Source: Oscillospiraceae bacterium (GTDB lineage Bacteria; Bacillota; Clostridia; UBA1381). From it: DNA of 64,000 nt. Below are positions 40,438 to 60,993 of the stretch, one piece after another (position 1 is the stretch's first letter; every line of letters begins with the position of its first letter). The notes beneath the pieces were generated by a model. That model was not told the DNA's origin and made no database searches. It worked only from the letters and a program-made list of their open reading frames with translations. Location: contig JAFLUC010000001.1 of assembly GCA_022509005.1 (NCBI GenBank), positions 10,521 to 74,520 on the forward strand. Reading direction: 5' to 3'. Both the position numbers and the translations under genes were made by a program.

Positions 40438-40454
40438 AGAATTTGGTGATTGTT

Positions 40455-44218: not shown

Positions 44219-44261
44219 CACCTGCATAATATAATTAATTAACTAATTATATTGGCAGGTG
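44219..44261 (+). promoter_or_regulatory. imperfect 16-bp hairpin between tmcAL and sigK whose 3' arm contains the sigK SD
   Basis: CACCTGC-a-TAATATAATTA / loop attaac / TAATTATAT-tg-GCAGGTG. The GGCAGGTG in the 3' arm lies 6 nt before the ATG at 44267. Confidence 0.4.
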
Positions 44262-44266
44262 TTCTT

Positions 44267-46871: not shown

Positions 46872-46940
46872 TTTTTTCGCTCCTTTATATTTTATATATA
46901 CATTCTACCATATAATATATATAACGTCAATGACCACTGC

Positions 46941-46967
46941 ACAAAAATATGACTGCAGCATATAATA
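46941..46967 (+). promoter_or_regulatory. candidate sigma-K-type promoter upstream of dpaA (AC-16-CATATAATA)
   Basis: AC at 46941-46942, a 16-nt spacer, then CATAtaaTA at 46959-46967. This matches the AC-N16/17-CATAnnnTA consensus as I recall it. The region is AT-rich, so a chance match is possible. Confidence 0.3.
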
Positions 46968-47005
46968 TCAAATAAAAACTAATATTACTGAAGGGAGTTT
47001 TATAT

Positions 47006-47812
47006 ATGTTCAGAAACATTTCGGTTATAGGCGGCGATCTGCGCCAGATCACACTCGCAAGAATGCTTATTGAGGATGGATACAATGTGCTGATTTACGG
47101 ATTTACAAATGATATTAAAACCGAAGGGATTCCAACAACCGATAATTTAAAAGAAGCTCTCGACGCTGATATTATCATTCTCCCTGTTCCGGTTTCTTTT
47201 GATAATAAAACAATAAATATGACTTTTTCCGAAACAGTTCTCTCAACAGATGAGCTGATCAACGAGATCAATCCGCTCTCTATCGTTTTCGGCGGCAGAA
47301 TTTCGGAATATATCGCATCAAGACTTAGCGCAAGAGGCATAAAATACAAGGACTACATGGTTCGTGATGAGCTTGCGATACGCAATGCCGTACCTACCGC
47401 GGAAGGAGCTATAAAAATCGCAATTGAGGAAACTCCTATAACTTTGCACAACAGTAAATGTCTTGTTCTCGGTTATGGTAAGGTCGGAAAAATTCTTGCC
47501 AGATGCCTTGACGGAATCGGTGCTCATACATATGTAGAAGCCCGTAAATATGCCGATCTCGCGCTCATTGAAGGCCACGGCTTCCATCCGCTTACAATGA
47601 ATGAGACAACAGCGCATATTGATGAATTTGATGTTATTTTTAATACGATTCCCGCACTTGTTCTCACAGAGAATGTACTGAAAAAAATAAAGCCCGATAC
47701 ACTGATAATAGATCTTGCCAGCCGTCCAGGCGGCGTTGATTTCGACACTGCGCGTAATCTTGGACTAAGAGTAATATGGGCACTGTCGCTTCCGGGAAGT
47801 ATATCGGGTTGA
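47006..47812 (+). CDS. dpaA: dipicolinate synthase subunit A, 5' segment (codons 1-264 authentic to 47799, then 4 element-derived codons and a stop)
   Basis: Colinear with SpoVFA/DpaA (VIGGDLRQ, VPTAEGAI, VLGYGKVGK, IIDLASRPGGVDF, SLPG). It ends prematurely as SISG-stop exactly where sequence composition changes. Confidence 0.85.
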   Translation: MFRNISVIGGDLRQITLARMLIEDGYNVLIYGFTNDIKTEGIPTTDNLKEALDADIIILPVPVSFDNKTINMTFSETVLSTDELINEINPLSIVFGGRISEYIASRLSARGIKYKDYMVRDELAIRNAVPTAEGAIKIAIEETPITLHNSKCLVLGYGKVGKILARCLDGIGAHTYVEARKYADLALIEGHGFHPLTMNETTAHIDEFDVIFNTIPALVLTENVLKKIKPDTLIIDLASRPGGVDFDTARNLGLRVIWALSLPGSISG

Positions 47813-47843
47813 AAAAATGGATATCAAAAAAATTTGATATCCA
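47812..47843 (-). terminator. intrinsic terminator overlapping the last codons of the serine recombinase gene
   Basis: TGGATATCAAA-aaaa-TTTGATATCCA perfect 11-bp stem, followed by T6 on the minus strand. Confidence 0.6.
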
Positions 47844-49347
47844 CTTTTCCGTCTGCAATCTCTATAACTTTAATAACCGCTTTTGCTATTTGTTTTTTTA
47901 TTTCCGTATTATAATTATCCCAATCTTTTATGATATTTTCAATATCAAGCTTATCTGCATTTCCGTTTTGTTCTTCAAGCTGTAACCTTGTAATTTCTTC
48001 CAGTATCTCATTTTTCTCTCTATCCAATTCCACAATACGCTGATTGATATACTCAATCGTTATACTGTTTCCTTTAGCAACTGCTGACAGTAGATTTTTT
48101 ATTTCTTCATCTGTTTTTGATAACTCTATTTTCAATTCATTTATTTCGGGTGAATCTTTTACAACACTGCTTTGTTTTATCTCCTTGAGTTCATTTAATC
48201 TTTTAAATAATGCCTCTTTAACTATATTTTCTATTGTTTCGACAGGAACCATTTTTTTAGAATGCGGACATGTTTTATATCTGCGCCCTCTGCAATATAA
48301 ATATCTATATACTGTTTTATTGTTTTTTGATCTTGCTTTATACTTTTTAATATAGTAATTATATCCGCACCCGCATTTCATCAATCCTTGCAGCCACGTT
48401 AAGCTTCCTGTTCCTATGTTTGAGTGTCCTTTTCTTTGTGCAAAAATATTTCTTACAGAAAGCCATACATCAGCGTCAATTATTCCGTCATGTAAACCTA
48501 ATGTTACATAATCATTTTTCAGATTAACAAATTTTGAGCCTTTACGTTTGGACACTTTCCCGTAGACGTAACAACCTTTAACACCCTTATAATCCTCAAT
48601 AGAATTATTCATTGTTGCCCCAATACCCAAAAGATAATTATATATATCAGCATTTGCCTTTACATGAATCGGACTTTTCAACATTCTTGATACAGCATTT
48701 GAACTCCATGGACGGTTTTGCCTTGTCGGTACTTTCTTCTCATTTAATTCACGAGCTATCGCATTCAGACTCATACCATTGAGATAATCTTTATACATTT
48801 TTTCTAATATTCTGCTCTCGTCTTTCTTTATTTTAAATGTATAAGTTTTTTTACCATTTAATTGTGTTTCTATCTTTTCATATCCGAATGGAGCATATCC
48901 TCCTAAATAGAATCCCTTTTCACCTCTGCTATAATAGTTATCTTCTACTCTCTGTTGTATGGTTTCTCGTTCCATTTCTGCAAAAGTCATAAGAATACTA
49001 ACCATTGCTTTTCCTTGAGTAGTTGATGTATCAAACTGCTCATTAACAGACACCAAATCCGTATTATATTTTTCAAATTCTCTTTGCATATTGATAAAAT
49101 CATAAAGCGAACGGCTTATTCTATCGTATTTATAGATGATTATTCTCGATACGTTCCCTTGTTTTACTTCCGTCATCATACGCTGAAACTCAGGTCTGTT
49201 TTTCACTGATTTACCCGAATATCCTTTATCTGAAAATATCTCATATGATTCATTTTTATTTATTTTCTTTTTACATTCCTCTATCTGAGATTCAATACTG
49301 ATACTGTCTTTTTTGTCAACTGACTGTCTTGCATATATTGCTTGCAT
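47824..49347 (-). CDS. large serine recombinase (serine integrase)
   Basis: Resolvase-type catalytic N-terminus (AIYARQSVDKKDSISIESQ, YKYDRISRS), a recombinase domain, a Cys-rich zinc ribbon (CGCG...CRGRRYKTCPH) and a C-terminal coiled coil. 507 aa. Confidence 0.9.
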   Translation of the reverse strand: MQAIYARQSVDKKDSISIESQIEECKKKINKNESYEIFSDKGYSGKSVKNRPEFQRMMTEVKQGNVSRIIIYKYDRISRSLYDFINMQREFEKYNTDLVSVNEQFDTSTTQGKAMVSILMTFAEMERETIQQRVEDNYYSRGEKGFYLGGYAPFGYEKIETQLNGKKTYTFKIKKDESRILEKMYKDYLNGMSLNAIARELNEKKVPTRQNRPWSSNAVSRMLKSPIHVKANADIYNYLLGIGATMNNSIEDYKGVKGCYVYGKVSKRKGSKFVNLKNDYVTLGLHDGIIDADVWLSVRNIFAQRKGHSNIGTGSLTWLQGLMKCGCGYNYYIKKYKARSKNNKTVYRYLYCRGRRYKTCPHSKKMVPVETIENIVKEALFKRLNELKEIKQSSVVKDSPEINELKIELSKTDEEIKNLLSAVAKGNSITIEYINQRIVELDREKNEILEEITRLQLEEQNGNADKLDIENIIKDWDNYNTEIKKQIAKAVIKVIEIADGKVDIKFF

Positions 49348-49370
49348 ATATTTCTTACCCCTTTATTGAA

Positions 49371-49399
49371 ATACGGTGGAGATTAAATCTCCACCGTAT
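49371..49399 (-). terminator. 13-bp perfect hairpin between the small ORF and the recombinase start
   Basis: ATACGGTGGAGAT-taa-ATCTCCACCGTAT. On the minus strand it is followed by TTTCAAT and the recombinase SD AAAGGGG. It could be a partial terminator or attenuator. Confidence 0.45.
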
Positions 49400-49404
49400 T
49401 GATT

Positions 49405-49578
49405 TTAAATTTTTTGTTTGATAATACTTTCTATGCGATCTTTTATTTGAATATCACATTTTTTTCTCTGTATAAAATCAATTTTCGGTGTAAATGTATT
49501 CACAGTAATTCCATCTCTTTTATAACTACTTATCATCTCACCGATTAAACTATTTGATGATTCTGTCACACTATACAT
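49405..49578 (-). CDS. small hypothetical protein, 57 aa (candidate recombination directionality factor)
   Basis: Below the track cutoff. My translation is MYSVTESSNSLIGEMISSYKRDGITVNTFTPKIDFIQRKKCDIQIKDRIESIIKQKI-stop. SD GGAGTG lies 9 nt upstream, and a consensus promoter lies just upstream. Confidence 0.4.
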   Translation of the reverse strand: MYSVTESSNSLIGEMISSYKRDGITVNTFTPKIDFIQRKKCDIQIKDRIESIIKQKI

Positions 49579-49611
49579 ATAAAAATCACTCCATTCTTAG
49601 AAATTTTTTTA

Positions 49612-49640
49612 ATTATAATCCGTTTTTCTTCAAATGTAAA
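49612..49640 (-). promoter_or_regulatory. sigma-A-type promoter (TTTACA-17-TATAAT) upstream of the small ORF/recombinase
   Basis: The reverse strand reads TTTACA tttgaagaaaaacggat TATAAT. Confidence 0.5.
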
Positions 49641-49678
49641 CGGCGCATGACGAATTTTCATCGTTTATTCTATAAATT

Positions 49679-50218
49679 TTATGCTCGAATCTGCTTGTTT
49701 GATACCTTTTCATCTTCAAATACGTGTTTCTGATAAGATCGCAATTCATTCAATCTCACAGTTCGATCTAATATTTGTACATGGTGTAACATACACGACA
49801 CAATAATTGCTTCATCATAAGCAATTGGAACAAACTCCATTAAAACCTTTGCGTAGTACACCCCATCCAGTAATGTATCTCTTGGGATTGGATTGAAATT
49901 ACTATCGACAATATATGGTGTAACATTAACACTCGCTGTAAAAAACATACTATTAGCGTATAACAAATTATACGGGTGTTCTATGTTACCACATTTTAAT
50001 GGTAGTTCCAATATACTACGCTCCATAGCTGAGAGTGTGCCTCGCTCAACTGCAGCATCAATAGCATTATTTATCGCTGTTATCATCTCCGCATTTTCTT
50101 TAGAAAAAATGACACTTATCTCATACACTGGTACCATTTCATCTTCATGTTCTAGTTCAAATAATCTCTGAAAATCAAGAACAACAACATCTGTTTTTAA
50201 TTTTGTTTCCATTGTCAA
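49679..50218 (-). CDS. hypothetical protein, possibly a DUF2815-like phage/plasmid ssDNA-binding protein
   Basis: 179 aa. The pattern ...YEISVIFSKENAEMITAINNAIDAA...LELPLKCGNIE...YANSMFFTASVNVTPYIVDSNFNPI...DGVYYAKVLMEFVPIAYD...VSCMLHHVQIL parallels the DUF2815 consensus as I remember it. Not verified. Confidence 0.45.
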   Translation of the reverse strand: MTMETKLKTDVVVLDFQRLFELEHEDEMVPVYEISVIFSKENAEMITAINNAIDAAVERGTLSAMERSILELPLKCGNIEHPYNLLYANSMFFTASVNVTPYIVDSNFNPIPRDTLLDGVYYAKVLMEFVPIAYDEAIIVSCMLHHVQILDRTVRLNELRSYQKHVFEDEKVSNKQIRA

Positions 50219-50466
50219 CTCGCTTTCTTCAAATTTTTTATAATATTTAGTGAAATGTTATTTCGAAGCTTCGTCTGTTAATATTGTAATATTATTATAG
50301 CAGCTCTTTCATTTACAGTCAATTGGACGTGTTTAACAAGGTTTAATGTATCAATTTAGTATAAAGGGAGATTTTGAGAGCTGATATGAAAAAATCCAAT
50401 AAAAACGATCAATTAGAATAATTAATATATAGGGATACTGTCTTTGTTTCAAGTACATAATTTTAG

Positions 50467-50493
50467 GGTGCAGAATGATTGATATTCTGCACC
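50467..50493 (-). terminator. 10-bp hairpin just after the rep stop
   Basis: GGTGCAGAAT-gattgat-ATTCTGCACC. The downstream U-tract is weak. Confidence 0.4.
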
Positions 50494-50500
50494 TTATAAA

Positions 50501-51325
50501 TTATCTTTTTGTGTACTGCTCATATGAGTTTCTTCCAATCAAATTATTAATTCCATCATTATGATTCATAATAACATTATCTGTCCGCCTATAAGTCAAT
50601 TCTTTATCACCTATATATTTTTTGATATTACTATATTTTGTACGCAACTTAGTAATATTCATATCAGCAGAGCAACTATAAATTTTCATTCCTGTTGGAT
50701 AGAAAGATATTCTCTGAATTTTATTCTCATACCGAGTGATGTCAAAATAATACGACATCGTATTGACATTATTTATTTTTTGTACATTGACAGCTATTCC
50801 CCTTTTCCACAGTTTACGAACGCTATCATCTGTAATATTAAATGACTGTCCATCAAGACGTTTTATGAGACTGTGTATATGCCATGAACCCCTGGTATCT
50901 GGTTCTTTGATATAAAAGTATCTAAGTTTCCCATATCGCCTTTTAAGTTTATTCAGGAATTTCTGAAAATCTTTACTCAATCTTTCAGGTTCGCTCATAA
51001 ACTCTGAATATGTGAGAGTTACAAATCTTTCAGTATCGTCACCGTAGAAGAAACCTTTTATATATCTGGGAACATCTTTAAATGATTCTTTAAATGACGA
51101 TATATTTTTAGTTGATGTCTTGTTGTATTCCTTGATTTCCCCTGTTCGAGTATCAATAAAATGATCTTTATCAATTTTCTTTGTAGGGATGAAATTTAAA
51201 TTGTTTTTCTGAAAATTTTTACTGTCAATAATCTCGGTATATCGTGGAGTTTGAAAAACTGTCACTTGGTCTGTGGGATTAATTGGTTGAAACTCTGTTT
51301 GATGGTTAATTGTTTTTATTGGCAT
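50501..51325 (-). CDS. HUH-type rolling-circle replication initiator-like protein (Rep)
   Basis: Motif 1-like RFVTLTY, HUH motif SWHIHSLI, and a downstream Tyr-rich block NTMSYYFDITRY. I place the start at MPIKTI (51325), behind AAGGAGGGG. The track start 51382 lacks an SD. Confidence 0.6.
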   Translation of the reverse strand: MPIKTINHQTEFQPINPTDQVTVFQTPRYTEIIDSKNFQKNNLNFIPTKKIDKDHFIDTRTGEIKEYNKTSTKNISSFKESFKDVPRYIKGFFYGDDTERFVTLTYSEFMSEPERLSKDFQKFLNKLKRRYGKLRYFYIKEPDTRGSWHIHSLIKRLDGQSFNITDDSVRKLWKRGIAVNVQKINNVNTMSYYFDITRYENKIQRISFYPTGMKIYSCSADMNITKLRTKYSNIKKYIGDKELTYRRTDNVIMNHNDGINNLIGRNSYEQYTKR

Positions 51326-51763
51326 ATTCTGCCCCTCCTTAAAATGATTTAGTTGGTTATTCGTAAAATGAATGTACCGCACTTAATCCTAATAAGAATG
51401 GACCGAACGTTTTATTTGATTTTTTTTACTTTCGCTATAATTTATCAACATCTATAAATAAATTCAACAATTCGACAATAGATTTTAAACATGATACAAG
51501 AGGTCTGGGATAACTTTAAAGATATTATTCTTTATGGATAATATAGAAAATGGTCTGTTAAATTAAAAAGATTAAAAATGATTTTGACACTTAATTCAAC
51601 TAATCAAAAATGTGTTACTTGTTTCCATAATAATTAAATATGGAGTATTCCTTGTATTACTATTAGCGATTACTACTAATCTTGATAATTGAGGATACAA
51701 CTAACTTATTTTAAAATAATTTCTTATAATAAAATATTCCTAACTTACTTCATCATCTCTAAG

Positions 51764-51801
51764 ATATAAAAAGTACAGAATCAGAAATGAATCTGTACTT
51801 T
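51764..51801 (-). terminator. intrinsic terminator after the 226-aa gene
   Basis: AAAGTACAGA-loop-TCTGTACTTT followed by TTTTAT on the minus strand, 7 nt after the stop. Confidence 0.55.
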
Positions 51802-51807
51802 ATAAGA

Positions 51808-52488
51808 CTATCGATATATTTTTCTTATTTCTGTTTTACCCTCAATAAAGTTATAATGTTCATATTGATAAATCGTTCTATATTTATATCTGATATTTAC
51901 ACTGTGGGGTATAGGAAATAATAATATTTTACCTAAAAACTCATTTACGTTATCGGGTACTGGATTATATGATTTTTTAAAGAAATATTCATTCTTCCAT
52001 TTCTGATATTTTTTATCCGTCAATTCTTGATTTTCTTTTAATTTTAATATATCCTGTTTAAATTCATTTAATGATAAATGCGGATTCCTAAGACATTCTT
52101 TCTCTGCGTCACTTACAGATATACAATCTCTAAACGCAATTGAATATTCTCTCTCTTTATTTCTGATATTCGGATATATCGGAAAATCATATTTATTATT
52201 AATCGCATTTCTTTTTACCCATAAGGATTTTTCTACTTTATAGATACCAACAACTTTAGCTTTATGTATAGCAAAAACATACTCTATTTTCTCATAAGCC
52301 GTTTTTCTCATTTCCCATGCACCACGAGTACAATTATATATTATCTCATGTACATCTTTATATATATCATAATCTTTAACAGATAAATTCTGTTCTTTAC
52401 AAGCTTTTTCAAAAGATTTTCCAATATGAGCAAAGAATACATGTTCATTTTTTAAATCTGTTATATCTTTATATAACTCATTTGACAT
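51808..52488 (-). CDS. hypothetical protein (226 aa, no recognised domain)
   Basis: Clean ORF with SD GGAGG and its own promoter and terminator. I recognise no family. Confidence 0.5.
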   Translation of the reverse strand: MSNELYKDITDLKNEHVFFAHIGKSFEKACKEQNLSVKDYDIYKDVHEIIYNCTRGAWEMRKTAYEKIEYVFAIHKAKVVGIYKVEKSLWVKRNAINNKYDFPIYPNIRNKEREYSIAFRDCISVSDAEKECLRNPHLSLNEFKQDILKLKENQELTDKKYQKWKNEYFFKKSYNPVPDNVNEFLGKILLFPIPHSVNIRYKYRTIYQYEHYNFIEGKTEIRKIYR

Positions 52489-52517
52489 TTTTATTGCCTC
52501 CTAATCTATTATGCAGT

Positions 52518-52546
52518 TATTATAGCATAAAATGTCATAAAAGTCT
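52518..52546 (-). promoter_or_regulatory. sigma-A-type promoter (TAGACT-17-TATAAT, TGn extended) for the 226-aa gene
   Basis: The reverse strand reads TAGACT tttatgacattttatgc TATAAT. Confidence 0.4.
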
Positions 52547-52690
52547 ATTGATAGTATCGTTAATTTTCATATACGAAAATTGTTACTTGTGACTATTGAT
52601 AAAATTTATTACAATCATATTTAACTTATATATAATAAAGTCAGTAATAAAAAATACCGATGATTTTATTACTTTAAATCATCTTGTATT

Positions 52691-52775
52691 ATACATTCTC
52701 TCTGCGTATAGAATTTATATTACCTTGTAAAATAAATCCTTTATACGACATTTTAAAGCGTCCTGTATATGAATT
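52691..52775. repeat. ~85-bp imperfect direct repeat, copy 1
   Basis: ATACATTCTC...ATTACCT..TAAAATAAATCCTTTATAC..CATTTTAAAG.G.TCTGT.TATGAATT recurs at 52874-52959. Confidence 0.7.
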
Positions 52776-52808
52776 AAACGAATCAGATATCCCATTTATC
52801 TTCTACTA

Positions 52809-52848
52809 CAAAAAATATCGGAGCAGTATATACATATACCACTCCGAC
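52809..52848 (-). terminator. probable intrinsic terminator of the SPFH operon
   Basis: The minus strand reads TCGGAG..GTATAT..ATATAC..CTCCGA, a composite stem followed by ATATTTTTTG. It lies between the two repeat copies. Confidence 0.45.
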
Positions 52849-52873
52849 AATTATCCTTAAATCACTTTATATC

Positions 52874-52959
52874 ATACATTCTCATTCCATATATGAATCA
52901 ATATTACCTCATAAAATAAATCCTTTATACATCATTTTAAAGTGTTCTGTGTATGAATT
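52874..52959. repeat. ~85-bp imperfect direct repeat, copy 2 (abuts the stop of the 285-aa gene)
   Basis: See copy 1. Alignment by eye shows most positions identical. Confidence 0.7.
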
Positions 52960-53816
52960 TATACATGGTATTCAATAATTTTATTGTACACATACATATT
53001 TACTGCGTCATACTTACTTGTTAAAATAGGTCTTTCATTTCCACCTAAATATTTTACTATAGCGGCTGCGACAGCGGACGAAGCTGAATTCCCAAACAGT
53101 GAACCAACCGTTATCTTACTACACCCTTTTATGTAATTCATAAATGAATAAAGCTGTGAAATATCTTTATCGGATATGCCATTTGGATTATCAGGGTCTT
53201 CTGTATCAATAAAATCCAGAACAAGTGTCCACTTTGAATTAAGCCTACTGTCATATCCGTCTTTACCTATAAAGATATGCGCTTCGTTACAATACGGATC
53301 ACCATACTTAAGACCCCTGTCAATATCAATATATCCACTACACAAAGTATATACATTTCCATATGGGAATTGTGTGCTGTAAAACTCCATTTTTCCACCT
53401 GTTGAAAAATATGCACGCTCATTAAAACTATGTATCATAGGATTCAGGAATCGCTTCTCCATACCACATTTATCCGCCAAATATACCGCAGGTTCATATA
53501 ATATTTGTAATATCTTATCAATACATCTGAGAATAAATTCACCATCTTCTTGCGTACCATACCAGGGAATAGAAATAACATCGGCATATCTTCTAAATTC
53601 TTCACTCATATTTGTAACATCTAAAATATATTCTTCAGGATTAGACTTATAAATAAATATGTAAAGTGATTTCATTACTTTTATAAAATTATCATTATTT
53701 GCCACTGACCTCATATACTCGTCAACAGTTGTCAGGTTTTTTTCAAGCCATTTGCATATTTCGCTACAATATATAAGTCTGTCGCATAATGGAAGTGCTG
53801 CAAAATCATTATCCAT
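52959..53816 (-). CDS. hypothetical protein (285 aa, no recognised domain)
   Basis: Last gene of the minus-strand operon starting at 57476. I recognise no family. Confidence 0.5.
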   Translation of the reverse strand: MDNDFAALPLCDRLIYCSEICKWLEKNLTTVDEYMRSVANNDNFIKVMKSLYIFIYKSNPEEYILDVTNMSEEFRRYADVISIPWYGTQEDGEFILRCIDKILQILYEPAVYLADKCGMEKRFLNPMIHSFNERAYFSTGGKMEFYSTQFPYGNVYTLCSGYIDIDRGLKYGDPYCNEAHIFIGKDGYDSRLNSKWTLVLDFIDTEDPDNPNGISDKDISQLYSFMNYIKGCSKITVGSLFGNSASSAVAAAIVKYLGGNERPILTSKYDAVNMYVYNKIIEYHV

Positions 53817-53861
53817 AATTCTTTTACCTCATATTTTATTTTTTCAATAATTATTTAGCGA

Positions 53862-54131
53862 TTATTTCCCTAAAAATTTTTTATTTGCTTCTTTTCTCAA
53901 TTTTTTACTCGGTACAAACTTCAATTTCACATTTTCTATAACTTCTGCCGACTTTGTACCTTGATTTTTAATTTCTGACGTTAAATACCCTACATCATCA
54001 CTAATCACAAATTTCTCTTGATTCAATAACGCTTCTTTTATATCCTCTGCGAATACTTCTTTAAACTTGTCATATAAGGCTTCCGTTGTGATTTTCTCTA
54101 CTGAAAATTTTAATAATTCCGCTTTGTTCAT
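53862..54131 (-). CDS. divergent HU/IHF-fold DNA-binding protein
   Basis: 89 aa. MNKAELLKFSVEKI... N-terminus and a C-terminal KLKFVPSKKLRKEANK parallel HU (MNKAELI...VPAFKAGKALKDAV). The beta-arm is short and lacks the RNP motif. Confidence 0.5.
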   Translation of the reverse strand: MNKAELLKFSVEKITTEALYDKFKEVFAEDIKEALLNQEKFVISDDVGYLTSEIKNQGTKSAEVIENVKLKFVPSKKLRKEANKKFLGK

Positions 54132-54239
54132 TTCTCTACACTCCCTGTAATCCTTGTAATTTCTTATCAGATGAATCCTGTTAGATTAAAATGTTAATCG
54201 ATTTCATAAGCTTATTATCTTCGTAAGAATTTGTATTTG

Positions 54240-55775
54240 TCAATTTTCTATATATTTATTTGATACAATTGCACTAACATCGATAGCAACCATAGCACTT
54301 GTAACATCACTTGAGCTATATCCATACTTAGTAGTCAATGTATTCTTAATAGTATTTTCATCCATATTACGTAATTCGAACATTTCAATAGCTTTGATTT
54401 CAATTTCACTTAACGGTTTTTTCTCCAATTGTCTCGTAATTTTATGTATTTCGGCTTTAATTCCACCAATTTCAATCAATACTTTAGCATTAGCGCGCGA
54501 ACTAAAAAGACCTTTTTTTAATTTTGATTTTTCAGCTTTATATTGCTTCGCTAATTCGCTCATTCGTGCTTTTAGCTTTTGTTCAAGCGCAATGGCTTTT
54601 TTCTTTTGTTCTTCTTCATCTTTTTTCTTCTTTTGTATTTGTTCCAATAAGGATTGAACACTTTTACTAATAGGATAATCAGTATTAATTTTCTTTATCT
54701 TTTTAACTACATAAACAAAGTCATCAACAATGTCTTTTAGACGATATTTATCTTTAGTAGTATTATATTCAATAGCTAACGAATCTGCCCTCAATGATAA
54801 TGCTTCTAATTCTTCTTCCTCTGTTGACGAAAGATTAAGATGAATATATGTATAGATATCAACTCTACTCATCGTAAGATTATTATCTGTACTAAACGCT
54901 TCCGCAAGCCACATCAATTCTTGTCTATAATTACTAACAAATTTTTGAATTAACTCATTATGATCTATAGTTTCAAGTAATGAAATAATTTCCCTTTGTA
55001 TCAAATGCAATAATGAGTTGTTAATACTTATAGCAAGGAATCTTGCATGTTTTTTAGCATCCAGCATCTCTACGATGTCTTCGGCAATATGGTAAGAACT
55101 ATCTTGCGCATCCATTTTATTTACAACGAGTCTAGCAAGACTATAAATACTACTATCCTTAACATCTATGCTTTGAGCAAGATTGTAAATACTATTACCT
55201 TGAGAATCTATATTTTTAGCAAGATTATATTTATCTTTTTCATTGTCCATAGCCTCCAACAGAGCCGCAAACATAGCCTCCAATTTTCCTGCATTCTTAT
55301 AAAAAAAAGCTGATTTAACGAAACGCAATGTATTGTCGAAAAGCTTTTCAATCACTAATGATATAAAAGTTAATTTATTATTATCATCACAATTATCTAA
55401 TGCTTTATTCGCATAAAATAAAGTCTGATTAATACCAACTTCACTCTTACCATGCAATATGTCTTGCTTGATTTTGAAAAGCTCAATTTCCATTCTTAAA
55501 GTCCACCCAGCAAAACTATTTGCGTCAAGTGCTAACAGACTATCACAGGTTGCTATTGCTTTTCTATACTCATCAACATCCAGATAATTTAGAGCCAAGT
55601 CATAATAATTTTTGATTTTATTATTTTGTTCACTCTTAATCAATTCCGAAAAATTCGCTATTATTTTTTGTGAATTTTCCGCTGAATATTTTGTTCCGCA
55701 CCGCTGACAAACAAATACCTCTGATTCTTTTACCATATCTGTACTACCGCACATTTCACAAGTTAATCTCTCCAT
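54240..55775 (-). CDS. N-terminal zinc-ribbon protein with helical-repeat and Lys/Glu-rich coiled-coil regions (511 aa)
   Basis: CEMCGS...CQRCGTKY zinc ribbon at residues 6-29, TPR-like helical pairs, and a KKKKDEEEQKKKAIALEQKLKARMSELAKQYKAEKSKLKK coiled coil. Confidence 0.5.
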   Translation of the reverse strand: MERLTCEMCGSTDMVKESEVFVCQRCGTKYSAENSQKIIANFSELIKSEQNNKIKNYYDLALNYLDVDEYRKAIATCDSLLALDANSFAGWTLRMEIELFKIKQDILHGKSEVGINQTLFYANKALDNCDDNNKLTFISLVIEKLFDNTLRFVKSAFFYKNAGKLEAMFAALLEAMDNEKDKYNLAKNIDSQGNSIYNLAQSIDVKDSSIYSLARLVVNKMDAQDSSYHIAEDIVEMLDAKKHARFLAISINNSLLHLIQREIISLLETIDHNELIQKFVSNYRQELMWLAEAFSTDNNLTMSRVDIYTYIHLNLSSTEEEELEALSLRADSLAIEYNTTKDKYRLKDIVDDFVYVVKKIKKINTDYPISKSVQSLLEQIQKKKKDEEEQKKKAIALEQKLKARMSELAKQYKAEKSKLKKGLFSSRANAKVLIEIGGIKAEIHKITRQLEKKPLSEIEIKAIEMFELRNMDENTIKNTLTTKYGYSSSDVTSAMVAIDVSAIVSNKYIEN

Positions 55776-55794
55776 TTTGATTATCCTCCTTTGT

Positions 55795-56232
55795 TTATTT
55801 CCAATATGTTTTCTTTAATTTTTCAAATTCCTTATGTTTTTTCGCTGCTTTTTCATCAACCTTAACCATATGCTCATTTCCTGACGATAAAATTATCAAA
55901 CGTATTGCAAAGAACGCTAAAACCGCAATATGTATAACTATTGGTATAGCAATATACATACTTACCAAACAAGCTATAATACACAAGATTATCGACACAA
56001 TCGTACTTGATACCGCATATCCGACAGCCGTATAAATATATGCGAAGCCTTGAGGTGATTTGTTATTACATTTACCGAACACCCATAAACTGACCGCAAT
56101 ACCGCCTATCGCTATAAGCGAGAAAATATATGCTATTATAAATGTTGCCGTTATTGGTACTATTAAAAATAATAATGTTACCACTACTGCTGCTATTACA
56201 GCAGATAAAACAATTCTCATATTATTATCCAA
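55795..56232 (-). CDS. small integral membrane protein (4 predicted TM helices)
   Basis: Strongly hydrophobic, with a basic C-terminal tail. A TTG at 56232 sits 6 nt after GGAGGG. The alternatives are the ATG at 56220 or the track start 56259, which overlaps the SPFH gene. Confidence 0.5.
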   Translation of the reverse strand: MDNNMRIVLSAVIAAVVVTLLFLIVPITATFIIAYIFSLIAIGGIAVSLWVFGKCNNKSPQGFAYIYTAVGYAVSSTIVSIILCIIACLVSMYIAIPIVIHIAVLAFFAIRLIILSSGNEHMVKVDEKAAKKHKEFEKLKKTYWK

Positions 56233-56234
56233 TT

Positions 56235-57476
56235 TTATCCCTCCAGTTTTGTACCGCATTCAAGACAGAATTTTGCGCCTTGCGGTGCTTCCTTTCCGCA
56301 GTTAGGGCAAACAGCCTGTAATCTGCCGCCGCATTCCATACAGAATTTGCCTTTAGATGTTTTCTTATTGCAATGAGGACATATTATTTCATTTTCATTA
56401 AGCTGTTCTATTTTTGTACCACATTCAAGACAGAATTTTGCATTCTGCGGTAACTTATTACCGCAGTTAGGACAAATATTATCAGATTCATTCTTTGGCT
56501 TTACAGCGTTCCCAAGACTCTCATTAACCAATCCGCCGACTGTACCACCGACACCTGCCATTACTCCAAGACCTATACCCAGATTCGCCACATTACCGGC
56601 ACCCTCATTTTTAGCAAAATTTTGAGCAACATCAAATCCTCTCTCCTGTGCATAGGTGTATCCCTCAATCTGACGTTTCTGAGCCATTCCCTCTGCTTCA
56701 AGAATCATCTTTTGTTTCTCTGTTTCCTGTTCTATAATACTAACGCTCTGCTGTAATCTTGCTTCTGCAATATCCGCATATTGTCTGAAATGAATTTCTT
56801 TAAACCGTCTGTAAGTCGCATCACTTTCAGGTTTAACGATAGTAGTTACAAAGAAATGAACAAGTGATAATCCATATTCTTCAAAATCGTCTACAAGCAT
56901 TTTATGAATACTTTCCGACATTTCAGGGAGCTTTTCATCTATCTGGAATATATTAATACTGTTATTCCGTATATATGATGACAGATACCCTTTAAACCTC
57001 ATCATAAGAAACGCTCTGAATTTTTGAATCAATGCGGATTGTGTTAAATTTGTTTCTGTTCCTACCACCTTTACAAGTAGTTTACATGAATCTATAACAC
57101 GAAGTGACATTTCACCGCTTGCCCCTATTTGAATAGGAAAATTATATGTAGGCTCTATATATTCAATTTTACTGTCTGTACCCCATTTAACAGCCATTTG
57201 TTCAGTTTTATTTATAAAATATACTTCACAATGGAATGGCGTGTTATTATCAAAGGGTTTATTATAGAATTTGCTGATAAGAGGTATATTCTGCGTTTCC
57301 AGAGTATGTCTGCCGGCTTGAAATACATCTAAAATCTGACCATTCATATAAAATACAGCTTCTTGCGATTCATGTACAATAAGCTGTGTTTGAGTATTAA
57401 AATCCTCAATCGGTGATTTCCATACAAAGGTTGTATTGTCACCCTCATATTTAATGACCTGTGCTATATTAGCCAT
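56235..57476 (-). CDS. SPFH/Band-7 (YdjI/COG4260-like) protein with three C-terminal zinc ribbons
   Basis: N-terminus VIKYEGDNTTFVWKSPIEDF...LIVHESQEAVFYMNGQ...AGRHTLETQNIPL is typical of the Band_7_1/YdjI family. The C-terminus has CPNCGNKLPQNAKFCLECG, CPHCNKKTSKGKFCMECG and CPNCGKEAPQGAKFCLECG. Confidence 0.75.
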   Translation of the reverse strand: MANIAQVIKYEGDNTTFVWKSPIEDFNTQTQLIVHESQEAVFYMNGQILDVFQAGRHTLETQNIPLISKFYNKPFDNNTPFHCEVYFINKTEQMAVKWGTDSKIEYIEPTYNFPIQIGASGEMSLRVIDSCKLLVKVVGTETNLTQSALIQKFRAFLMMRFKGYLSSYIRNNSINIFQIDEKLPEMSESIHKMLVDDFEEYGLSLVHFFVTTIVKPESDATYRRFKEIHFRQYADIAEARLQQSVSIIEQETEKQKMILEAEGMAQKRQIEGYTYAQERGFDVAQNFAKNEGAGNVANLGIGLGVMAGVGGTVGGLVNESLGNAVKPKNESDNICPNCGNKLPQNAKFCLECGTKIEQLNENEIICPHCNKKTSKGKFCMECGGRLQAVCPNCGKEAPQGAKFCLECGTKLEG

Positions 57477-57547
57477 AATACATTATCCTTTCTGTGTAGC
57501 CATGATGTATTTATCATGTGTACCAACTCCATTGTTTATATAGATTC

Positions 57548-57576
57548 ATTATAACACACTTCACAATATTTTGCAA
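57548..57576 (-). promoter_or_regulatory. sigma-A-type promoter (TTGCAA-17-TATAAT, TGn extended) for the SPFH operon
   Basis: The reverse strand reads TTGCAA aatattgtgaagtgtgt TATAAT, about 70 nt upstream of the ATG at 57476. Confidence 0.55.
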
Positions 57577-57665
57577 CCATTATTTAACTTAATATTTAAC
57601 TGTATTTTTGCCTATATCTTTAAATAATAAAATCGGTTAAAATTATATTATACGGAGGTGTCTAT

Positions 57666-57839
57666 ATGGAATTCATTATAAAAAAACCAACCAGTTCCAA
57701 TCGCACAGTGAGAATGCCGGATGACCTGATAGAAAAAATAAGCAAGCTCGCTGCTGAACAAGAAATTTCTTTTAATCAATTAGTGATTCAATGCTGTGAA
57801 TTTGCACTTGAACATCTAAACAAGAAAAAAGATAAATAA
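57666..57839 (+). CDS. ribbon-helix-helix (CopG/Arc-like) DNA-binding protein, 57 aa
   Basis: Below the track cutoff. My translation is MEFIIKKPTSSNRTVRMPDDLIEKISKLAAEQEISFNQLVIQCCEFALEHLNKKKDK-stop, which shows a beta-strand/helix/helix RHH pattern. SD GGAGGTG lies upstream. Confidence 0.55.
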   Translation: MEFIIKKPTSSNRTVRMPDDLIEKISKLAAEQEISFNQLVIQCCEFALEHLNKKKDK

Positions 57840-57867
57840 TATAATTAACTGATTCTATTGGTTCTTA

Positions 57868-57931
57868 TATCCAATCCTCTATCCTATAAACTTCTCATTT
57901 TTTATAGTATTTTAGAAATGGGGATTGGATA
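57868..57931. repeat. 10-bp inverted repeat pair downstream of the RHH gene and tyrosine recombinase gene
   Basis: TATCCAATCC (57868-57877) and GGATTGGATA (57922-57931), enclosing a nested CTATAAA/TTTATAG hairpin. Confidence 0.5.
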
Positions 57932-57957
57932 GTTATTTCCTTATATAAAATCTCTTT

Positions 57958-58533
57958 TCATAAATTAACAGCATTATAACAGTCTGTAATCACTTCTTTA
58001 GTGATACCTATATATCTTAATGTAATTTCACTTGAACTGTGATTCAACATCTTTTGAAGTGTTTCTATTGGTACCTTATTAATATACCTGTGAAAAGCCA
58101 TTGTTTTTCTTAATGTATGAGTACCATAATTACCTTTAATACCTAAATCCTTTAGTGTACTTTTAATAATATGATGTAATGGTCTTACCCCTAAATGTCC
58201 TCCCTTTCTGCTTTTGAATAAATAATCGTTAAGGTCTACACTTTTAAACGTATCCAAATATGTTCTTATAGCATCCTTTGCGTTTTTGTTTAATACAAAT
58301 GTTCTTGCCTTTCCTGTTTTTTCTTCCTTTATAGTAACTTCATCAAATATCGTTTTTCCGTCTGTAACATCACTGATTTTCAATGATAATAAATCCCCTG
58401 CACGAAGTCCGACATTGATTCCTACTACAAATATACAATAATCCCTCTTGTTTTCTTTACCATATAGATATTGTTTGATTTTGTTGATATCCTTGATATT
58501 TCTTATAGGTTCAACCTCTTTGGGTATTGGCAT
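57958..58533 (-). CDS. small tyrosine recombinase (catalytic domain only, FimB/FimE-sized)
   Basis: 191 aa. GLRAGDLLSL (Arg I), HTLRKT (His-x-x-Arg) and LNHSSSEITLRYI (His/Tyr nucleophile). Confidence 0.85.
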   Translation of the reverse strand: MPIPKEVEPIRNIKDINKIKQYLYGKENKRDYCIFVVGINVGLRAGDLLSLKISDVTDGKTIFDEVTIKEEKTGKARTFVLNKNAKDAIRTYLDTFKSVDLNDYLFKSRKGGHLGVRPLHHIIKSTLKDLGIKGNYGTHTLRKTMAFHRYINKVPIETLQKMLNHSSSEITLRYIGITKEVITDCYNAVNL

Positions 58534-58637
58534 AGTTGTTCTCCTTTCACATTTTGCATTTGTTGAGATTTATATTATATATTTATCACAGTTCTCTTTA
58601 AATGTAAACGGTTTTTAGGACAGTCACAGAGTAAAAA

Positions 58638-58680
58638 CAATATTACCTTATAGCTAAATTTGCGATAAAAGGTAATATTG
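58638..58680. repeat. perfect 12-bp inverted repeat CAATATTACCTT-N19-AAGGTAATATTG
   Basis: Read directly. Lies in the divergent region between the tyrosine recombinase gene and vbhA. Confidence 0.75.
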
Positions 58681-58757
58681 AAAATCACATGTAAAAGGAT
58701 TTTTTATGATAAACTGCTTATAAACCTAACAATACCAATACTTTCAGGCTTTTTAGA

Positions 58758-58788
58758 CAATATTACCTTCTGTTAAATGGTAATATTA
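58758..58788. repeat. second copy of the same inverted repeat: CAATATTACCTT-N9-GGTAATATTA
   Basis: Read directly, about 120 bp from the first copy. Confidence 0.75.
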
Positions 58789-58830
58789 GAATGATATTTC
58801 AAATAAAAAATTTAATATCAAAAAAATCTA

Positions 58831-58859
58831 TGTACATTTTATTAAATCTATGTTATAAT
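58831..58859 (+). promoter_or_regulatory. candidate promoter of the vbhA-fic operon (TGTACA-17-TATAAT, TGn extended)
   Basis: TGTACA ttttattaaatctatgt TATAAT. AATCTATGT occurs twice across it. Confidence 0.4.
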
Positions 58860-58877
58860 ATTTTTGAGGTGTTTATT

Positions 58878-59054
58878 ATGACTGAAAAACAGAAAACTCA
58901 TTTAGATGAGGTTATATTCTCTATGGAAGTTGAGGGGTTTGAAATTCCCGATGAAGAAAAAGAAACTCTTATCGACATTCTAAACGGCAGATATACGTTT
59001 CAAGAAATATTAGATTCTTATATTTCAGAGGCTAAGGCTTATGGACGAGTATAA
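58878..59054 (+). CDS. VbhA-type Fic antitoxin
   Basis: 58 aa. It contains the inhibitory S-x-x-x-E-G motif (FSMEVEGF) characteristic of VbhA/class I Fic antitoxins. SD GAGGTG. Overlaps the fic start by 14 nt. The track start 58791 is upstream of the SD. Confidence 0.75.
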   Translation: MTEKQKTHLDEVIFSMEVEGFEIPDEEKETLIDILNGRYTFQEILDSYISEAKAYGRV

Positions 59055-59646
59055 ATATTATTATAAAGGTGCAGATTTTTACTGTTATCCTGATACTAAG
59101 GTACTGATTAATAAATTCGGAATACGTGACAGTGAGCAGTTAGAAACCGTTGAACGCAAAATTACCGCATTAAAGACTTTGGAGCTTGAAGAAAAGCCGT
59201 TTAATGGTAATTTGGATTATAAATATTTATTGAGTATTCATCATTATTTATTCTGTGATTTATATGAGTGGGCTGGTAAAATACGTGTTGGTGAATTTAT
59301 GTTTAAAGGCGACAGTATGTTTTTCAGAGCATGTTATATAGAACAAGGATTTGATAGTTTTTATAATAAGCTGCTTAATGAAAACTTCTTAAAGGTTTTA
59401 GATAAAAATAAATTTTGTGAACGTCTTGCATATTATATGGGTGAATTAAATGCGCTCCACCCTTTTAGAGAGGGAAACGGCAGGACAAGCAGACTATATT
59501 TCAAACAATTGGCAAAACAAGCTGGATATCAAATAAAGTTCAGTAATGTTTCAAAAGATGAATTATTAAATGCTGATATCGCAGCTTTTAACTGCAAATA
59601 CGATCCGTTAATTCGAGTATTGGACAAGGTTGTATTAAGCAATTAA
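59041..59646 (+). CDS. Fic-domain toxin (class I, VbhT/FicT-like)
   Basis: Canonical Fic motif HPFREGNGRTSR, 201 aa. Confidence 0.9.
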   Translation: MDEYKYYYKGADFYCYPDTKVLINKFGIRDSEQLETVERKITALKTLELEEKPFNGNLDYKYLLSIHHYLFCDLYEWAGKIRVGEFMFKGDSMFFRACYIEQGFDSFYNKLLNENFLKVLDKNKFCERLAYYMGELNALHPFREGNGRTSRLYFKQLAKQAGYQIKFSNVSKDELLNADIAAFNCKYDPLIRVLDKVVLSN

Positions 59647-59690
59647 TACTATCAGACGATATGTAATGGTTATTAAATAAAGATTATTAC

Positions 59691-59724
59691 AATCCGAGCA
59701 ATTATCACGCTCGGATTATTTTTC
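59691..59724 (+). terminator. intrinsic terminator after fic, about 25 bp inside the right element end
   Basis: AATCCGAGC-aattatcac-GCTCGGATT followed by ATTTTT. Confidence 0.65.
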
Positions 59725-59749
59725 AACTGAATACGTTTCCTCCCGGGAG

Positions 59750-59822
59750 ATTTGCGCCCGTCACAGCTGGAATTATCATAAAGGACACGATAACAAATAT
59801 GATTTCTGAGCTTCAGGGTTAA
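59750..59822 (+). CDS. dpaA: dipicolinate synthase subunit A, 3' segment (final 24 codons plus stop)
   Basis: Reads (R)FAPVTAGIIIKDTITNMISELQG-stop, matching the conserved DpaA tail LPG-x-x-AP-x-TAG-x-I. It is in frame with 47006-47799 when the two segments are joined. Confidence 0.75.
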
Positions 59823-59825
59823 ATA

Positions 59826-59863
59826 AAAGAACACATTCCGCTGCTGTGGAATGTGTTTTTTTG
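59826..59863. terminator. bidirectional intrinsic terminator between the dpaA tail and rpiB
   Basis: AAAAG-AACACATTCC-loop-GGAATGTGTT-TTTTT. Confidence 0.7.
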
Positions 59864-60301
59864 TTAGTTTTCCTCGATTTCGTGAATTTTCGTAACACGT
59901 GTCGCGTGTCTGCCGCCGAGAAACTCGGCGTTGTTCCATGCATCAACGATCATGAATGCAAGATCGCGGCCTGTTATTCTGCCGCCAAGACAGATGATGT
60001 TTGCATTATTGTGCTGCTTTGCCATTGTCGCACTGTACACGTCCGTGCAGTGCGCGGCACGTATGCCTTTATATTTATTTGCCGCTATGGAAATGCCTAT
60101 ACCTGTTCCACACACGAGAATCCCCTTCTCTGCTTCGTCCGATAATACAGCCTCACATACAGGCTTTGCACAATCAGGATAATCAATACTGTCCTCGCTA
60201 TATGCGCCGTAATCCTTATACGCTATTCCAAGCTCGTCAAGATGCTTCTTTATATGCTCCTTTAATTCATAACCGCCGTGGTCTGATCCTATAGCTATCA
60301 T
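59864..60301 (-). CDS. rpiB: ribose-5-phosphate isomerase B
   Basis: MIAIGSDHGGYELKE, ILVCGTGIGISIAANK. Confidence 0.9.
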   Translation of the reverse strand: MIAIGSDHGGYELKEHIKKHLDELGIAYKDYGAYSEDSIDYPDCAKPVCEAVLSDEAEKGILVCGTGIGISIAANKYKGIRAAHCTDVYSATMAKQHNNANIICLGGRITGRDLAFMIVDAWNNAEFLGGRHATRVTKIHEIEEN

Positions 60302-60993
60302 TTATCACTTAATCCTTTCTTCTTGTTTTCAAGCTCACGCTCCGCCTGTGATTTGCGCAGATACAGAGGCGTTATCATATTATAATGAACAGCCGTATCC
60401 GCTTTGGCGAGAGCGAGCGCCGCAACAGATGCAGCACGCACCTCCGAAAGATTAGCCGGGGCGAATATAACATCTTCCCCTGTTATTTCCTCTCTGTGCT
60501 TCAGCATTCCGTCACCTGTGTATATAACAATACCGTCCGAAAATAGTTCTGAAATTTCATCAACCGTCATAACAGTCGGGGCAAGAAGCTCTCTTTGTTC
60601 ATTGCCGGAAAAGCAGTATGCCGCCGTAAATACCTCCTCACGACGCGCATCAAGCATCGGTATGACAACTGCAGATGATCCAACATAGTTATACGCCAGC
60701 GCTTCAAGCGTGTTTATGCCAACCACCGGCTTTCCCGCTGCCTGCGCAAACGCGCGGACTGTTGAAATGCCTATTCTCAGTCCTGTAAACGAGCCCGGAC
60801 CCACTGTTACAGCGAACATATCCATTTCTGATATATCCATGTCAAGGTCATTAAGCAGACGCTCAACCATCACCATGAGGTTCTGCGAGTGCTTTTTCTT
60901 ATTTCTTATTACATACTCTCCAAGTATTACATTATCCTCTGCAACAGCCGCGGAGGCTGGAAATGATGAAGTGTCTACCGCAAGAATTTTCAT
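60298..60993 (-). CDS. tsaB: tRNA t6A37 biosynthesis protein TsaB
   Basis: MKILAVDTSS, GPGSFTGLRIG. Confidence 0.85.
   Translation of the reverse strand: MKILAVDTSSFPASAAVAEDNVILGEYVIRNKKKHSQNLMVMVERLLNDLDMDISEMDMFAVTVGPGSFTGLRIGISTVRAFAQAAGKPVVGINTLEALAYNYVGSSAVVIPMLDARREEVFTAAYCFSGNEQRELLAPTVMTVDEISELFSDGIVIYTGDGMLKHREEITGEDVIFAPANLSEVRAASVAALALAKADTAVHYNMITPLYLRKSQAERELENKKKGLSDK

Follow-up and report, generated by a model that had tools for sequence, protein, structure and literature searches.

Introduction

Intervening elements that split sporulation genes are on record in sigK, spsM, spoVFB, spoVR, gerE and yabG, mostly in Bacillus and in a few clostridial pathogens. The described case closest to the present one is vfbin, which, according to the accounts of it in PMC4191935 and PMC10747680, lies in spoVFB (dpaB) of Bacillus weihenstephanensis KBAB4 and has been shown experimentally to be excised. 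Here we analyse a 64-kb stretch of DNA from an Oscillospiraceae bacterium (called the window below, meaning the whole stretch), in which dpaA (spoVFA), the gene for subunit A of dipicolinate synthase, is split by an 11,950-bp element (47794-59743) that carries a gene for a large serine recombinase (LSR).

The skin element in sigK (recombinase SpoIVCA) and SPbeta in spsM (SprA/SprB) of Bacillus subtilis, together with skinCd of C. difficile, are prophages or prophage remnants of 14-134 kb, and the integrases of SPbeta and skinCd are not sporulation-specific as such, the control being exerted on the directionality factor (PMC4191935, PMC5499854, PMC5025042). In gin, located in gerE of Bacillus cereus ATCC10987, the serine recombinase GirC needs the 42-residue protein GirX for excision, and girC and girX are expressed only in sporulation, from T3 to T5 (PMC5595907). 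Experiments have demonstrated the mother-cell excision of skin, SPbeta, vfbin and gin (PMC4191935, PMC5595907, PMC6957869, PMC5025042).

The searchable literature of 8 million full texts, to which the Abe et al. 2013 paper on vfbin does not belong, yielded no description of an element that splits dpaA/spoVFA. A first-pass annotation of the window, which knew of no such element with this gene content, is thus borne out within that literature.

Results and Discussion

The plus-strand open reading frame (ORF) at 47006-47812 encodes a 268-residue protein whose C-terminal end is ...VIWALSLPGSISG (...WALSLPGSISG), and its stop codon (47810-47812) lies past the junction with the element. The tail of DpaA, (R)FAPVTAGIIIKDTITNMISELQG and a stop codon, is found on the same strand at 59750-59822, and fusing 47799 to 59750 gives 867 nt, that is, 288 codons plus a stop. 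With the junction preferred below, the 5' segment of the gene (47006-47793, plus strand) comprises codons 1-262 and two bases of Pro263, and the 3' segment (59742-59825, plus strand) runs from Pro263 to Gly288 and the stop codon. An intrinsic terminator follows (59822-59865, plus strand), with a 20-pair stem and then a T-run, and is common to dpaA and the convergent rpiB gene.

The fused protein matches the NCBIfam model for dipicolinate synthase subunit DpsA (NF006162) end to end, with 322 bits for a cutoff of 261 and with residues 4-286 on profile positions 6-291 of 297; on the older model TIGR02853 it scores 252 bits, under the cutoff of 319.65. It is 92% identical to an intact 288-residue homologue (P0001), the tail of which, RFAPVTAGIIIKDTITNMIAELQG, has one mismatch to that of the window over the last 24 residues. 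The solved DpaA structures 2RIR and 3D4O are matched with E values of 3e-61 and 2e-57, and the match of a profile of 22 homologues to 2RIR reaches residue 295 of 300. The first-pass annotation had read the ORF from 47006 as a DpaA running into ...SLPG-SISG and a stop, had placed the missing tail at 59750-59822 ahead of a strong terminator, and had proposed that 47799 and 59750 join in frame; all of this stands, and the check that it suggested, namely alignment of the joined product with DpaA homologues, gives the identity and the near-identical tail just described.

The insertion exchanges the conserved C-terminal helix of DpaA (24 residues) for SISG and a stop. One alternative to be considered is that the 268-residue protein is nevertheless functional, in which case an insertion at the 3' end would be neutral and excision unneeded. 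The loss amounts to 24 of 288 residues and leaves the Rossmann core intact, and 3'-end targeting is common to many integrases. However, the lost segment contains 10 invariant and 3 nearly invariant columns among 22 homologues of 59-76% identity, and it forms the terminal helix (residues 270-287) in a predicted model, so the truncation should impair the enzyme. Moreover, 115 of the 120 best homologues are 285-291 residues long, the five exceptions being two interrupted proteins of 268 residues, a 264-residue fragment and single proteins of 308 and 268 residues. The other 268-residue DpaA proteins that end right past the same proline codon, P0033 (...LPGKVWS) and P0089 (...LPINGWS), are themselves interrupted, and no close intact DpaA was found to end in ...LPGSISG. 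The substitute ends also vary from element to element (SISG, KVWS, INGWS and KMIC, each followed by a stop), with no replacement tail being supplied, and the orphan dpaA tails are open and conserved in every interrupted locus where they can be read. A truncated DpaA that still works is therefore quite improbable in our view.

Uninterrupted copies of dpaA, which had been suggested as a further check, are present in related genomes. On a 44-kb contig (L089), the gene encodes a 288-residue protein of the same protein cluster as the truncated DpaA, and there is no intervening block; L001 has an empty site as well. The gene order on L089 is that of the window (GH53 glycosidase, dpaA, rpiB, tsaB, tsaE and formate-tetrahydrofolate ligase, fhs), and blastn aligns L089 8014-10785 with window positions 45036-47790 and L089 10787-12040 with 59742-60992, both at 83% identity. 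As the alignment to the empty site breaks at the junctions, the insert is real and 11,950 bp long, with ends within a few bases of 47792 and 59743.

The window derives from a metagenome-assembled genome (MAG), and the junctions could in principle be an artefact of assembly or binning in a chimeric contig. We find this scarcely credible, since a single contig contains both junctions, flanked on either side by host genes in the order of L089, and since like junctions were assembled independently from other samples and by other pipelines (L002/L003, L004/L005, L006/L007, L008, L010 and L090). In addition, NCBI, Logan and ENA agree in recording the truncated DpaA and the LSR on one 112-kb contig.

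The LSR gene (47824-49347, minus strand; 507 residues) ends 25 nt from 47799. Its product has the Pfam domains Resolvase (PF00239, 1e-34), Recombinase (PF07508, 8e-21) and Zn_ribbon_recom (PF13408, 3e-9), and it keeps every invariant residue of a 40-sequence alignment, Y5, R7 and S9 included. The element has a GC fraction of 0.305, compared to 0.432 in the rest of the window, and 11 of its 14 ORFs are on the minus strand. The earlier description of an AT-richer block, transcribed mostly against dpaA and with a 507-residue LSR ending about 25 bp from the left junction, is accurate. The sequence comparisons confirm that dpaA is split by an LSR-bearing element, the excision of which would restore the reading frame.

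Aligned in register, attL (GCTTCCGGGAAG/TATAT) and attR (TCCTCCCGGGAG/ATTTG) are identical only at TCC, GG and AG, and the window alone can therefore not place the crossover. In six elements, the dpaA 5' junction reads ...CTN-CC-N14-(G/A)TTGAAAAA, with the arm motif GTTGAAAAA in the window, L002, L090 and L010, and ATTGAAAAA in L006 and L008. The 3' junction in the relatives reads TTTTTCAAC-N14-CC-GGG..., this arrangement adjoining the dpaA tail in L004, L006 and L008, and one-base variants of the motif being present in L009, L010, L011 and L012. In the window, the element side of attL spans 47792-47816 (plus strand; core CC at 47792-93, N14 at 47794-47807 and GTTGAAAAA at 47808-47816) and that of attR spans 59719-59743 (plus strand; TTTTTCAAC at 59719-27, N14 at 59728-41 and core CC at 59742-43). 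The architecture is kept in seven or more elements, and the reconstructed attP, TTTTTCAAC-N14-CC-N14-GTTGAAAAA, is nearly palindromic with CC at its exact centre. Judged by these arrangements, the inverted arm motifs around CC and the lack of long direct repeats are those of a typical large-serine-recombinase att site.

The first-pass annotation had placed the crossover at AG (47798-99 / 59748-49), such that AG+A would encode arginine. This position was rejected for CC (47792-93 / 59742-43), because the element arm of L090 (GATAAAC) diverges directly past CC, because that of L004 diverges before the proline codon (the base two positions ahead of CC no longer fits the leucine codon), and because CC is both the symmetry centre of attP and the place where the blastn alignment to the empty site breaks. 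The crossover is thus most likely at the CC of the Pro263 codon, or within one base of it. The restored protein and its frame are unchanged by this correction, as any in-register crossover yields the same 288-residue protein and the same 11,950-bp element. Excision would leave attB as ...CTGTCGCTTCC/CGGGAGATTTGCGCC..., and the circle would carry attP as ...ACGTTTCCTCC/GGGAAGTATATCGGGTTGAAAAA....

Between the end of the LSR gene and the GTTGAAAAA/TTTTTCAAC arm motif there are 7 nt, and the distance to the attL core is 30 nt. The order of LSR stop codon, 7 nt, TTTTTCAAC, N14 and core is kept in both orientations in which the elements occur, and, read in the direction of the LSR, the core is either CC or GG, depending on the orientation. 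This leads us to infer a nearly palindromic attP in which only the core would set the orientation. An inversion of the interior of the window element relative to its att arms was also considered, with regard to the nearest relatives, in which the LSR lies beside the dpaA tail, and was rejected in favour of the simpler alternative.

A scan of one genome per GTDB species with the LSR alignment gave 80 loci, and these and the earlier loci were searched with DpaA, DpaB and the LSR by tblastn. Nearly all the LSRs found that are at least ~46% identical to that of the window are shown, by their flanking sequences, to sit at the same dpaA codon, in either orientation, or in dpaB. LSRs of 46-69% identity lie beside the dpaA tail and are co-directional with dpaA (L004/5, L006/7, L008, L009, L011, L012 and L015), and in one further locus (L018, 46%) it is the upstream end of the LSR gene that adjoins the tail, the two being divergent. 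In L010, L016 and L017 (49-56%), the LSR lies beside the 5' part of dpaA and antiparallel to it, as in the window, and in L013, L014 (both after codon ~13) and L019 (43-54%) it is dpaB that is split or fragmented. The one exception above 46% is the truncated LSR of L020, 53% identical over residues 3-417, with neither gene nearby; in the remaining loci, the LSRs are at most 45% identical and dpaA and dpaB are not within 10 kb.

The nearest relatives of the window have the opposite orientation in dpaA. The interrupted gene of P0033, on a 77-kb contig, is separated from the dpaA tail and dpaB by a related element of 13.1 kb, which encodes a small tyrosine recombinase, an SPFH protein, a single-stranded-DNA-binding protein (SSB), a rolling-circle replication initiator (Rep) and an LSR 66% identical to the one studied here. 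Complete elements range from 3.2 kb to this size, the smallest one (L010, 764-4875) consisting only of a gene for a Na+/Ca2+-exchanger-like membrane protein (a transporter), a small ORF and the LSR. Several LSR clusters hold 20-98 members, and LSR identity tracks host DpaA identity, with a Spearman coefficient of 0.79 that is descriptive only, as the 15 pairs are non-independent.

The sister LSRs in dpaB split this gene after about codon 13 (MVGYAICGSFCTH), the dpaB segments being located at 4455-4500 and 12262-12750 in L013, 11553-11840 in L014 and 5441-5524 in L019. The arm motif of these elements, ATCTTGTTAC / GTAACAAGAT, differs from that of the dpaA elements. There seems to be a second break near codon 158 in L013. 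In L014 and L019, both from the MAG WQYZ01, different dpaB fragments lie beside different LSRs, and several elements may therefore reside in a single dpaB gene.

Directly upstream of the LSR gene is a 57-residue ORF (49405-49578, minus strand). An ORF of 54-63 residues occupies this position in all 12 related loci inspected, the 3.2-kb minimal element included, with the shared motif Y.K.G.TV..Y.P......RKKD.QI...I..IIK, and the 57-residue protein is a candidate for a recombination directionality factor or an accessory protein. It has no match in Pfam, PHROG or PADLOC; a word-index protein search returned the query itself only, and a full phmmer search gave one real relative (58 residues, 45% identity) together with spurious long proteins. 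The AF2 model is a beta-hairpin and a helix (pLDDT 75), for which a Foldseek search of the PDB gave nothing under E = 4; the sixth-ranked match is a chain of a directionality factor (9dxd_B), which at E = 5.7 is no evidence.

The operon of the small ORF and the LSR is preceded by a sigmaA-type promoter, TTTACA-N17-TATAAT (49612-49640, minus strand; an 11/12 match). Upstream of the small ORF, the window shares the sequence CCGTTTACA-N17-TATAAT with L006, L008 and L009, and the -35 element differs by a single base in L011 (TTTACT) and L012 (TGTACA); the corresponding sequence of L010, CATATAATA, is unlike TTTACA-N17-TATAAT. Between the 57-residue ORF and the LSR start codon lies a GC-rich hairpin with a 14-bp stem (49370-49400, minus strand). 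A hairpin is found here in seven elements (the window, L004, L006, L008, L009, L011 and L012), its position being kept while the sequence differs, and in some of them a T-run stands behind the stem. Such conservation points to a function of the structure itself, for instance as a terminator or attenuator or by occluding the ribosome-binding site, and the hairpin could attenuate LSR expression relative to that of the small protein.

Upstream of dpaA itself there is a sigmaK-like promoter (46941-46967, plus strand; AC-N16-CATAtaaTA). The pattern AC-N16-CATAnnnTA is common to the window, L089 and L001, with variation only at the n positions, and we infer a promoter of the sigmaK type by the B. 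subtilis consensus; the site also scores 10/12 as a sigma-70-like promoter. The spoVF operon of B. subtilis is sigmaK-dependent.

As for the remaining genes of the element, those next to the recombinase operon encode an Enc34/Gp2.5-like SSB (179 residues; 49679-50218, minus strand; Pfam PF10991 2e-19, PHROG 112 4e-17) and a Rep protein of the HUH type (293 residues; 50501-51382, minus strand; Pfam PF23343 2e-14, PHROG 3419), the latter 26-33% identical over 59-90% of its length to the Reps of 1.5-2.5 kb cryptic Firmicutes plasmids. The PHROG matches of the element are limited to the SSB, Rep and integrase, and genes for virion structure, packaging or lysis were not found; nor was any relative of the LSR found in IMG/VR. 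Given this lack of phage genes and the plasmid-like Rep, the element is, by its gene content, an integrative plasmid-like element and not a prophage remnant.

Five cargo ORFs follow (51808-56259, minus strand; 226, 285, 89, 511 and 154 residues, the fourth with an N-terminal zinc ribbon and the fifth a membrane protein), none of which has a significant family match in Pfam, PHROG or PADLOC. In this region, at 52674-52959, there are two AT-rich intergenic direct repeats of about 100 nt, 78-86% identical and 183-184 nt apart, which could be an origin or a regulatory region. Further on are genes for an SPFH/Band-7 protein with C-terminal zinc ribbons (413 residues; 56235-57476, minus strand; Pfam PF13421 4e-40, DZR and Zn_Ribbon_1), of which a homologue is present in the L002/L004 element, for a ribbon-helix-helix DNA-binding protein of the HicB/CopG-like type (57 residues; 57666-57839, plus strand; Pfam HicB 6.5e-6, RHH_1 0.0018) and for a small tyrosine recombinase with the catalytic domain only (191 residues; 57958-58533, minus strand; Pfam Phage_integrase 6e-26, PHROG 216 4e-55). 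Homologues of the last one, of 186-191 residues, occur in the elements of L002, L006, L007 and L008.

At the far end, the region 58791-59646 (plus strand) contains a Fic-domain gene (59041-59646; Pfam Fic 1e-13) and an overlapping small ORF upstream of it. The Fic protein matches PADLOC PDC-S04 (3e-71), a candidate defence family, and the small ORF has an S-x-x-x-E-G motif, which we take to be the inhibitory motif of VbhA-type antitoxins; the region thus looks like a Fic toxin-like module. At the corresponding end, the relatives carry a TIR-domain protein (CAP12-PCTIR_TIR) or a nucleotidyltransferase (L006-L008) or YoeB/RelB (L090), and a TPR-TIR protein is found in the interior of the L002/L004 element.

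Outside the element, the window contains an intact sigK (44252-44947, plus strand; 231 residues; NCBIfam NF004471, 293 bits for a cutoff of 252), 2 kb upstream of dpaA. The classical target of skin is thus unoccupied in this host, and dpaA is occupied. An 860-residue EF-G/Tet(M)-like GTPase (40443-43025, plus strand) scores 412 bits on the tetracycline ribosomal-protection model, which has a cutoff of 775, and judging by this score it is probably an EF-G paralogue rather than a resistance gene. An Rfam scan over the whole window gave no matches.

We can now consider what the element does in its host. In the mechanism that we favour, the LSR and the 57-residue protein, acting as directionality factor, would recombine attL with attR at the CC dinucleotide, which would free a circle with attP and restore the 288-codon dpaA under its sigmaK-like promoter. 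Taking place in the terminally differentiated mother cell, excision would allow dipicolinic acid to be made, and the forespore chromosome would retain the element; the excised circle could replicate with the rolling-circle Rep and the SSB that it encodes. By analogy with skin/sigK, SPbeta/spsM, vfbin/spoVFB and gin/gerE, we consider such a developmental excision in the mother cell to be fairly probable. It is favoured by the fact that one LSR clade has two unrelated target sequences, in dpaA and dpaB, which are alike only in function and timing, and also by the minimal recombination unit, the frequency of the family, the presence of sigK and the promoter of dpaA. The persistence of a minimal 3.2-kb unit is what the intervening-element model predicts (PMC6957869).

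A number of observations weigh against developmental excision. The operon of the small ORF and the LSR is predicted to be driven by the conserved, near-consensus sigmaA-type promoter, and a scan of the whole element with three sigmaE/K patterns of the B. subtilis consensus gave 0 matches, with 1.6, 0.2 and 1.1 expected. A canonical sporulation-specific trigger is therefore not visible, and the remark in the first-pass annotation that no such promoter precedes the recombinase extends to the entire element. The 57-residue protein shows no similarity to known directionality factors that is detectable by sequence or fold, and read-through from dpaA is antisense to the LSR in the orientation of the window. 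In most other hosts of the family dpaB lies directly 3' of dpaA, and it is absent by tblastn from the 64-kb window and from the dpaA neighbourhood in L089; dpaA is monocistronic in the genus of the window, being followed by the terminator and the convergent rpiB (window 59826 onward; L089 10868-10912), and dpaB would therefore be encoded elsewhere. The AT-richness and the replication genes make the element look currently mobile and not like a domesticated switch. Finally, the 5' part of dpaA in L006 (2400-3151) begins at codon 125, with DUF3791/DUF3990 genes and larE/larC in place of codons 1-124, and, if the contig is correctly assembled, this dpaA may have decayed through another disruption or a deletion.

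To the same side belong the searches for excision products. The exact restored 288-residue DpaA is absent from a collection of 15 billion proteins, and a family-level attP pattern has 0 matches in IMG/VR. The 37 matches in the JGI metagenomes are all to unrelated hairpin repeats, none of which has an LSR, Rep or dpaA in its vicinity. The highly repeated hairpin behind these matches, TTTTTCAACTTTTAYTACCCCATCCCTAAAGGGTGAAAAGTTGAAAAA (L091, L100 and L103-L126), is spread over many contigs from few samples and is often near contig ends, and it looks like a repeat element of another organism.

Several of these features are what one would see if this were an ordinary mobile element, for which the conserved dpaA sequence is merely the attB. 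Excision would in that case be stochastic or stress-induced and have no developmental role, and lysogens would be impaired in dipicolinic acid synthesis unless the element leaves. The conserved sigmaA-type promoter and the absence of sigmaE/K motifs fit this picture, as do the Rep, the SSB, the second recombinase and the defence- or toxin-like cargo typical of mobile elements, the GC content so far below that of the host and the apparently 5'-deleted dpaA of L006. However, the use of two sites, dpaA codon 263 and dpaB around codon 13, is hard to explain by sequence preference alone, and every known case in this class of genes is a developmental switch (PMC4191935, PMC5595907, PMC6957869). Furthermore, the 3.2-kb remnant has kept an intact LSR and the small ORF, and a family as widespread as this one argues that carriage is not strongly deleterious in spore formers. 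We therefore regard the absence of any developmental role as unlikely, while giving it real weight.

Returning to developmental excision, it can be extended to a fuller scenario, in which an LSR clade of gut and termite Clostridia would have specialised on dpaA and dpaB, diversified alongside its hosts and come to serve as a plasmid-borne developmental switch. The element would excise in the doomed mother cell, restore the synthesis of dipicolinic acid and amplify by means of Rep and SSB; it would be released for horizontal spread when the mother cell lyses, and the spore would inherit the integrated copy. Control would be exerted by the sigmaA promoter, the hairpin and the small ORF instead of sigmaE/K promoters, and lineages could change the orientation of the element through an inverted CC core, as the attP is nearly palindromic. 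With all these parts taken together, we consider the scenario doubtful.

Conclusion

The kind of system described here is already well known, and the gene of the sister subunit, spoVFB, is already a documented target. What is new is that the A subunit of dipicolinate synthase is the target of an intervening element, that dpaA and dpaB are recurrent targets of an LSR clade found in uncultured Clostridia of gut, rumen and termites, and that the elements combine plasmid-like content with both orientations at one attB and a compact candidate unit of integrase and directionality factor. If excision is developmental, the heat resistance and dormancy of the spores of abundant uncultured gut anaerobes would hinge on a mobile element, and annotation pipelines, by scoring these dpaA genes as truncated, would understate the capacity to sporulate. 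The short att sites (~48 bp) and the small ORF linked to the LSR gene also make a testable pair of integrase and candidate directionality factor, and the family offers natural examples of orientation switching at one attB.

Compared to skin, SPbeta and skinCd, the element has in common the LSR gene at one end, a mother-cell gene as the target and a precise excision that would restore the ORF. It differs in that their recombinase or directionality-factor genes have documented sigmaE/K promoters, of which none is visible here, and in that sigK is intact in the window. The best NCBIfam match of the LSR is XisF, with 137 bits; this is far under the equivalog cutoff of 375, and the LSR is therefore not a member of that family. 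In the XisF/fdxN system of Anabaena heterocysts an LSR likewise removes an element in a terminally differentiated cell, a developmental event there and a proposed one here, whereas the phylum, the target gene and the developmental programme are different. The small rolling-circle plasmids of Firmicutes share a Rep related at 26-33% identity, but they are free and have no integrase, while the present element is chromosomal by virtue of its LSR.

Another parallel in construction is gin, which is also a non-prophage element with a serine recombinase linked to a tiny protein (GirX, compared to the 57-residue ORF) and with additional recombinase genes. Here the differences are the operon promoter, which looks like the sigmaA type, the small ORF, which has no detectable similarity to any characterised directionality factor, and the target gene. 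With vfbin, finally, the comparison is between descriptions rather than recombinase sequences: subunit A is interrupted instead of B, the hosts are uncultured Clostridia instead of Bacillus, and the genes carried are plasmid-like. As vfbin is described in the accounts cited above, the two elements have in common that they lie inside a subunit gene of dipicolinate synthase, a late mother-cell gene, the frame of which is or would be restored by a recombinase, and in L013 and L014 the sisters of the LSR studied here split dpaB, the very gene in which vfbin resides.

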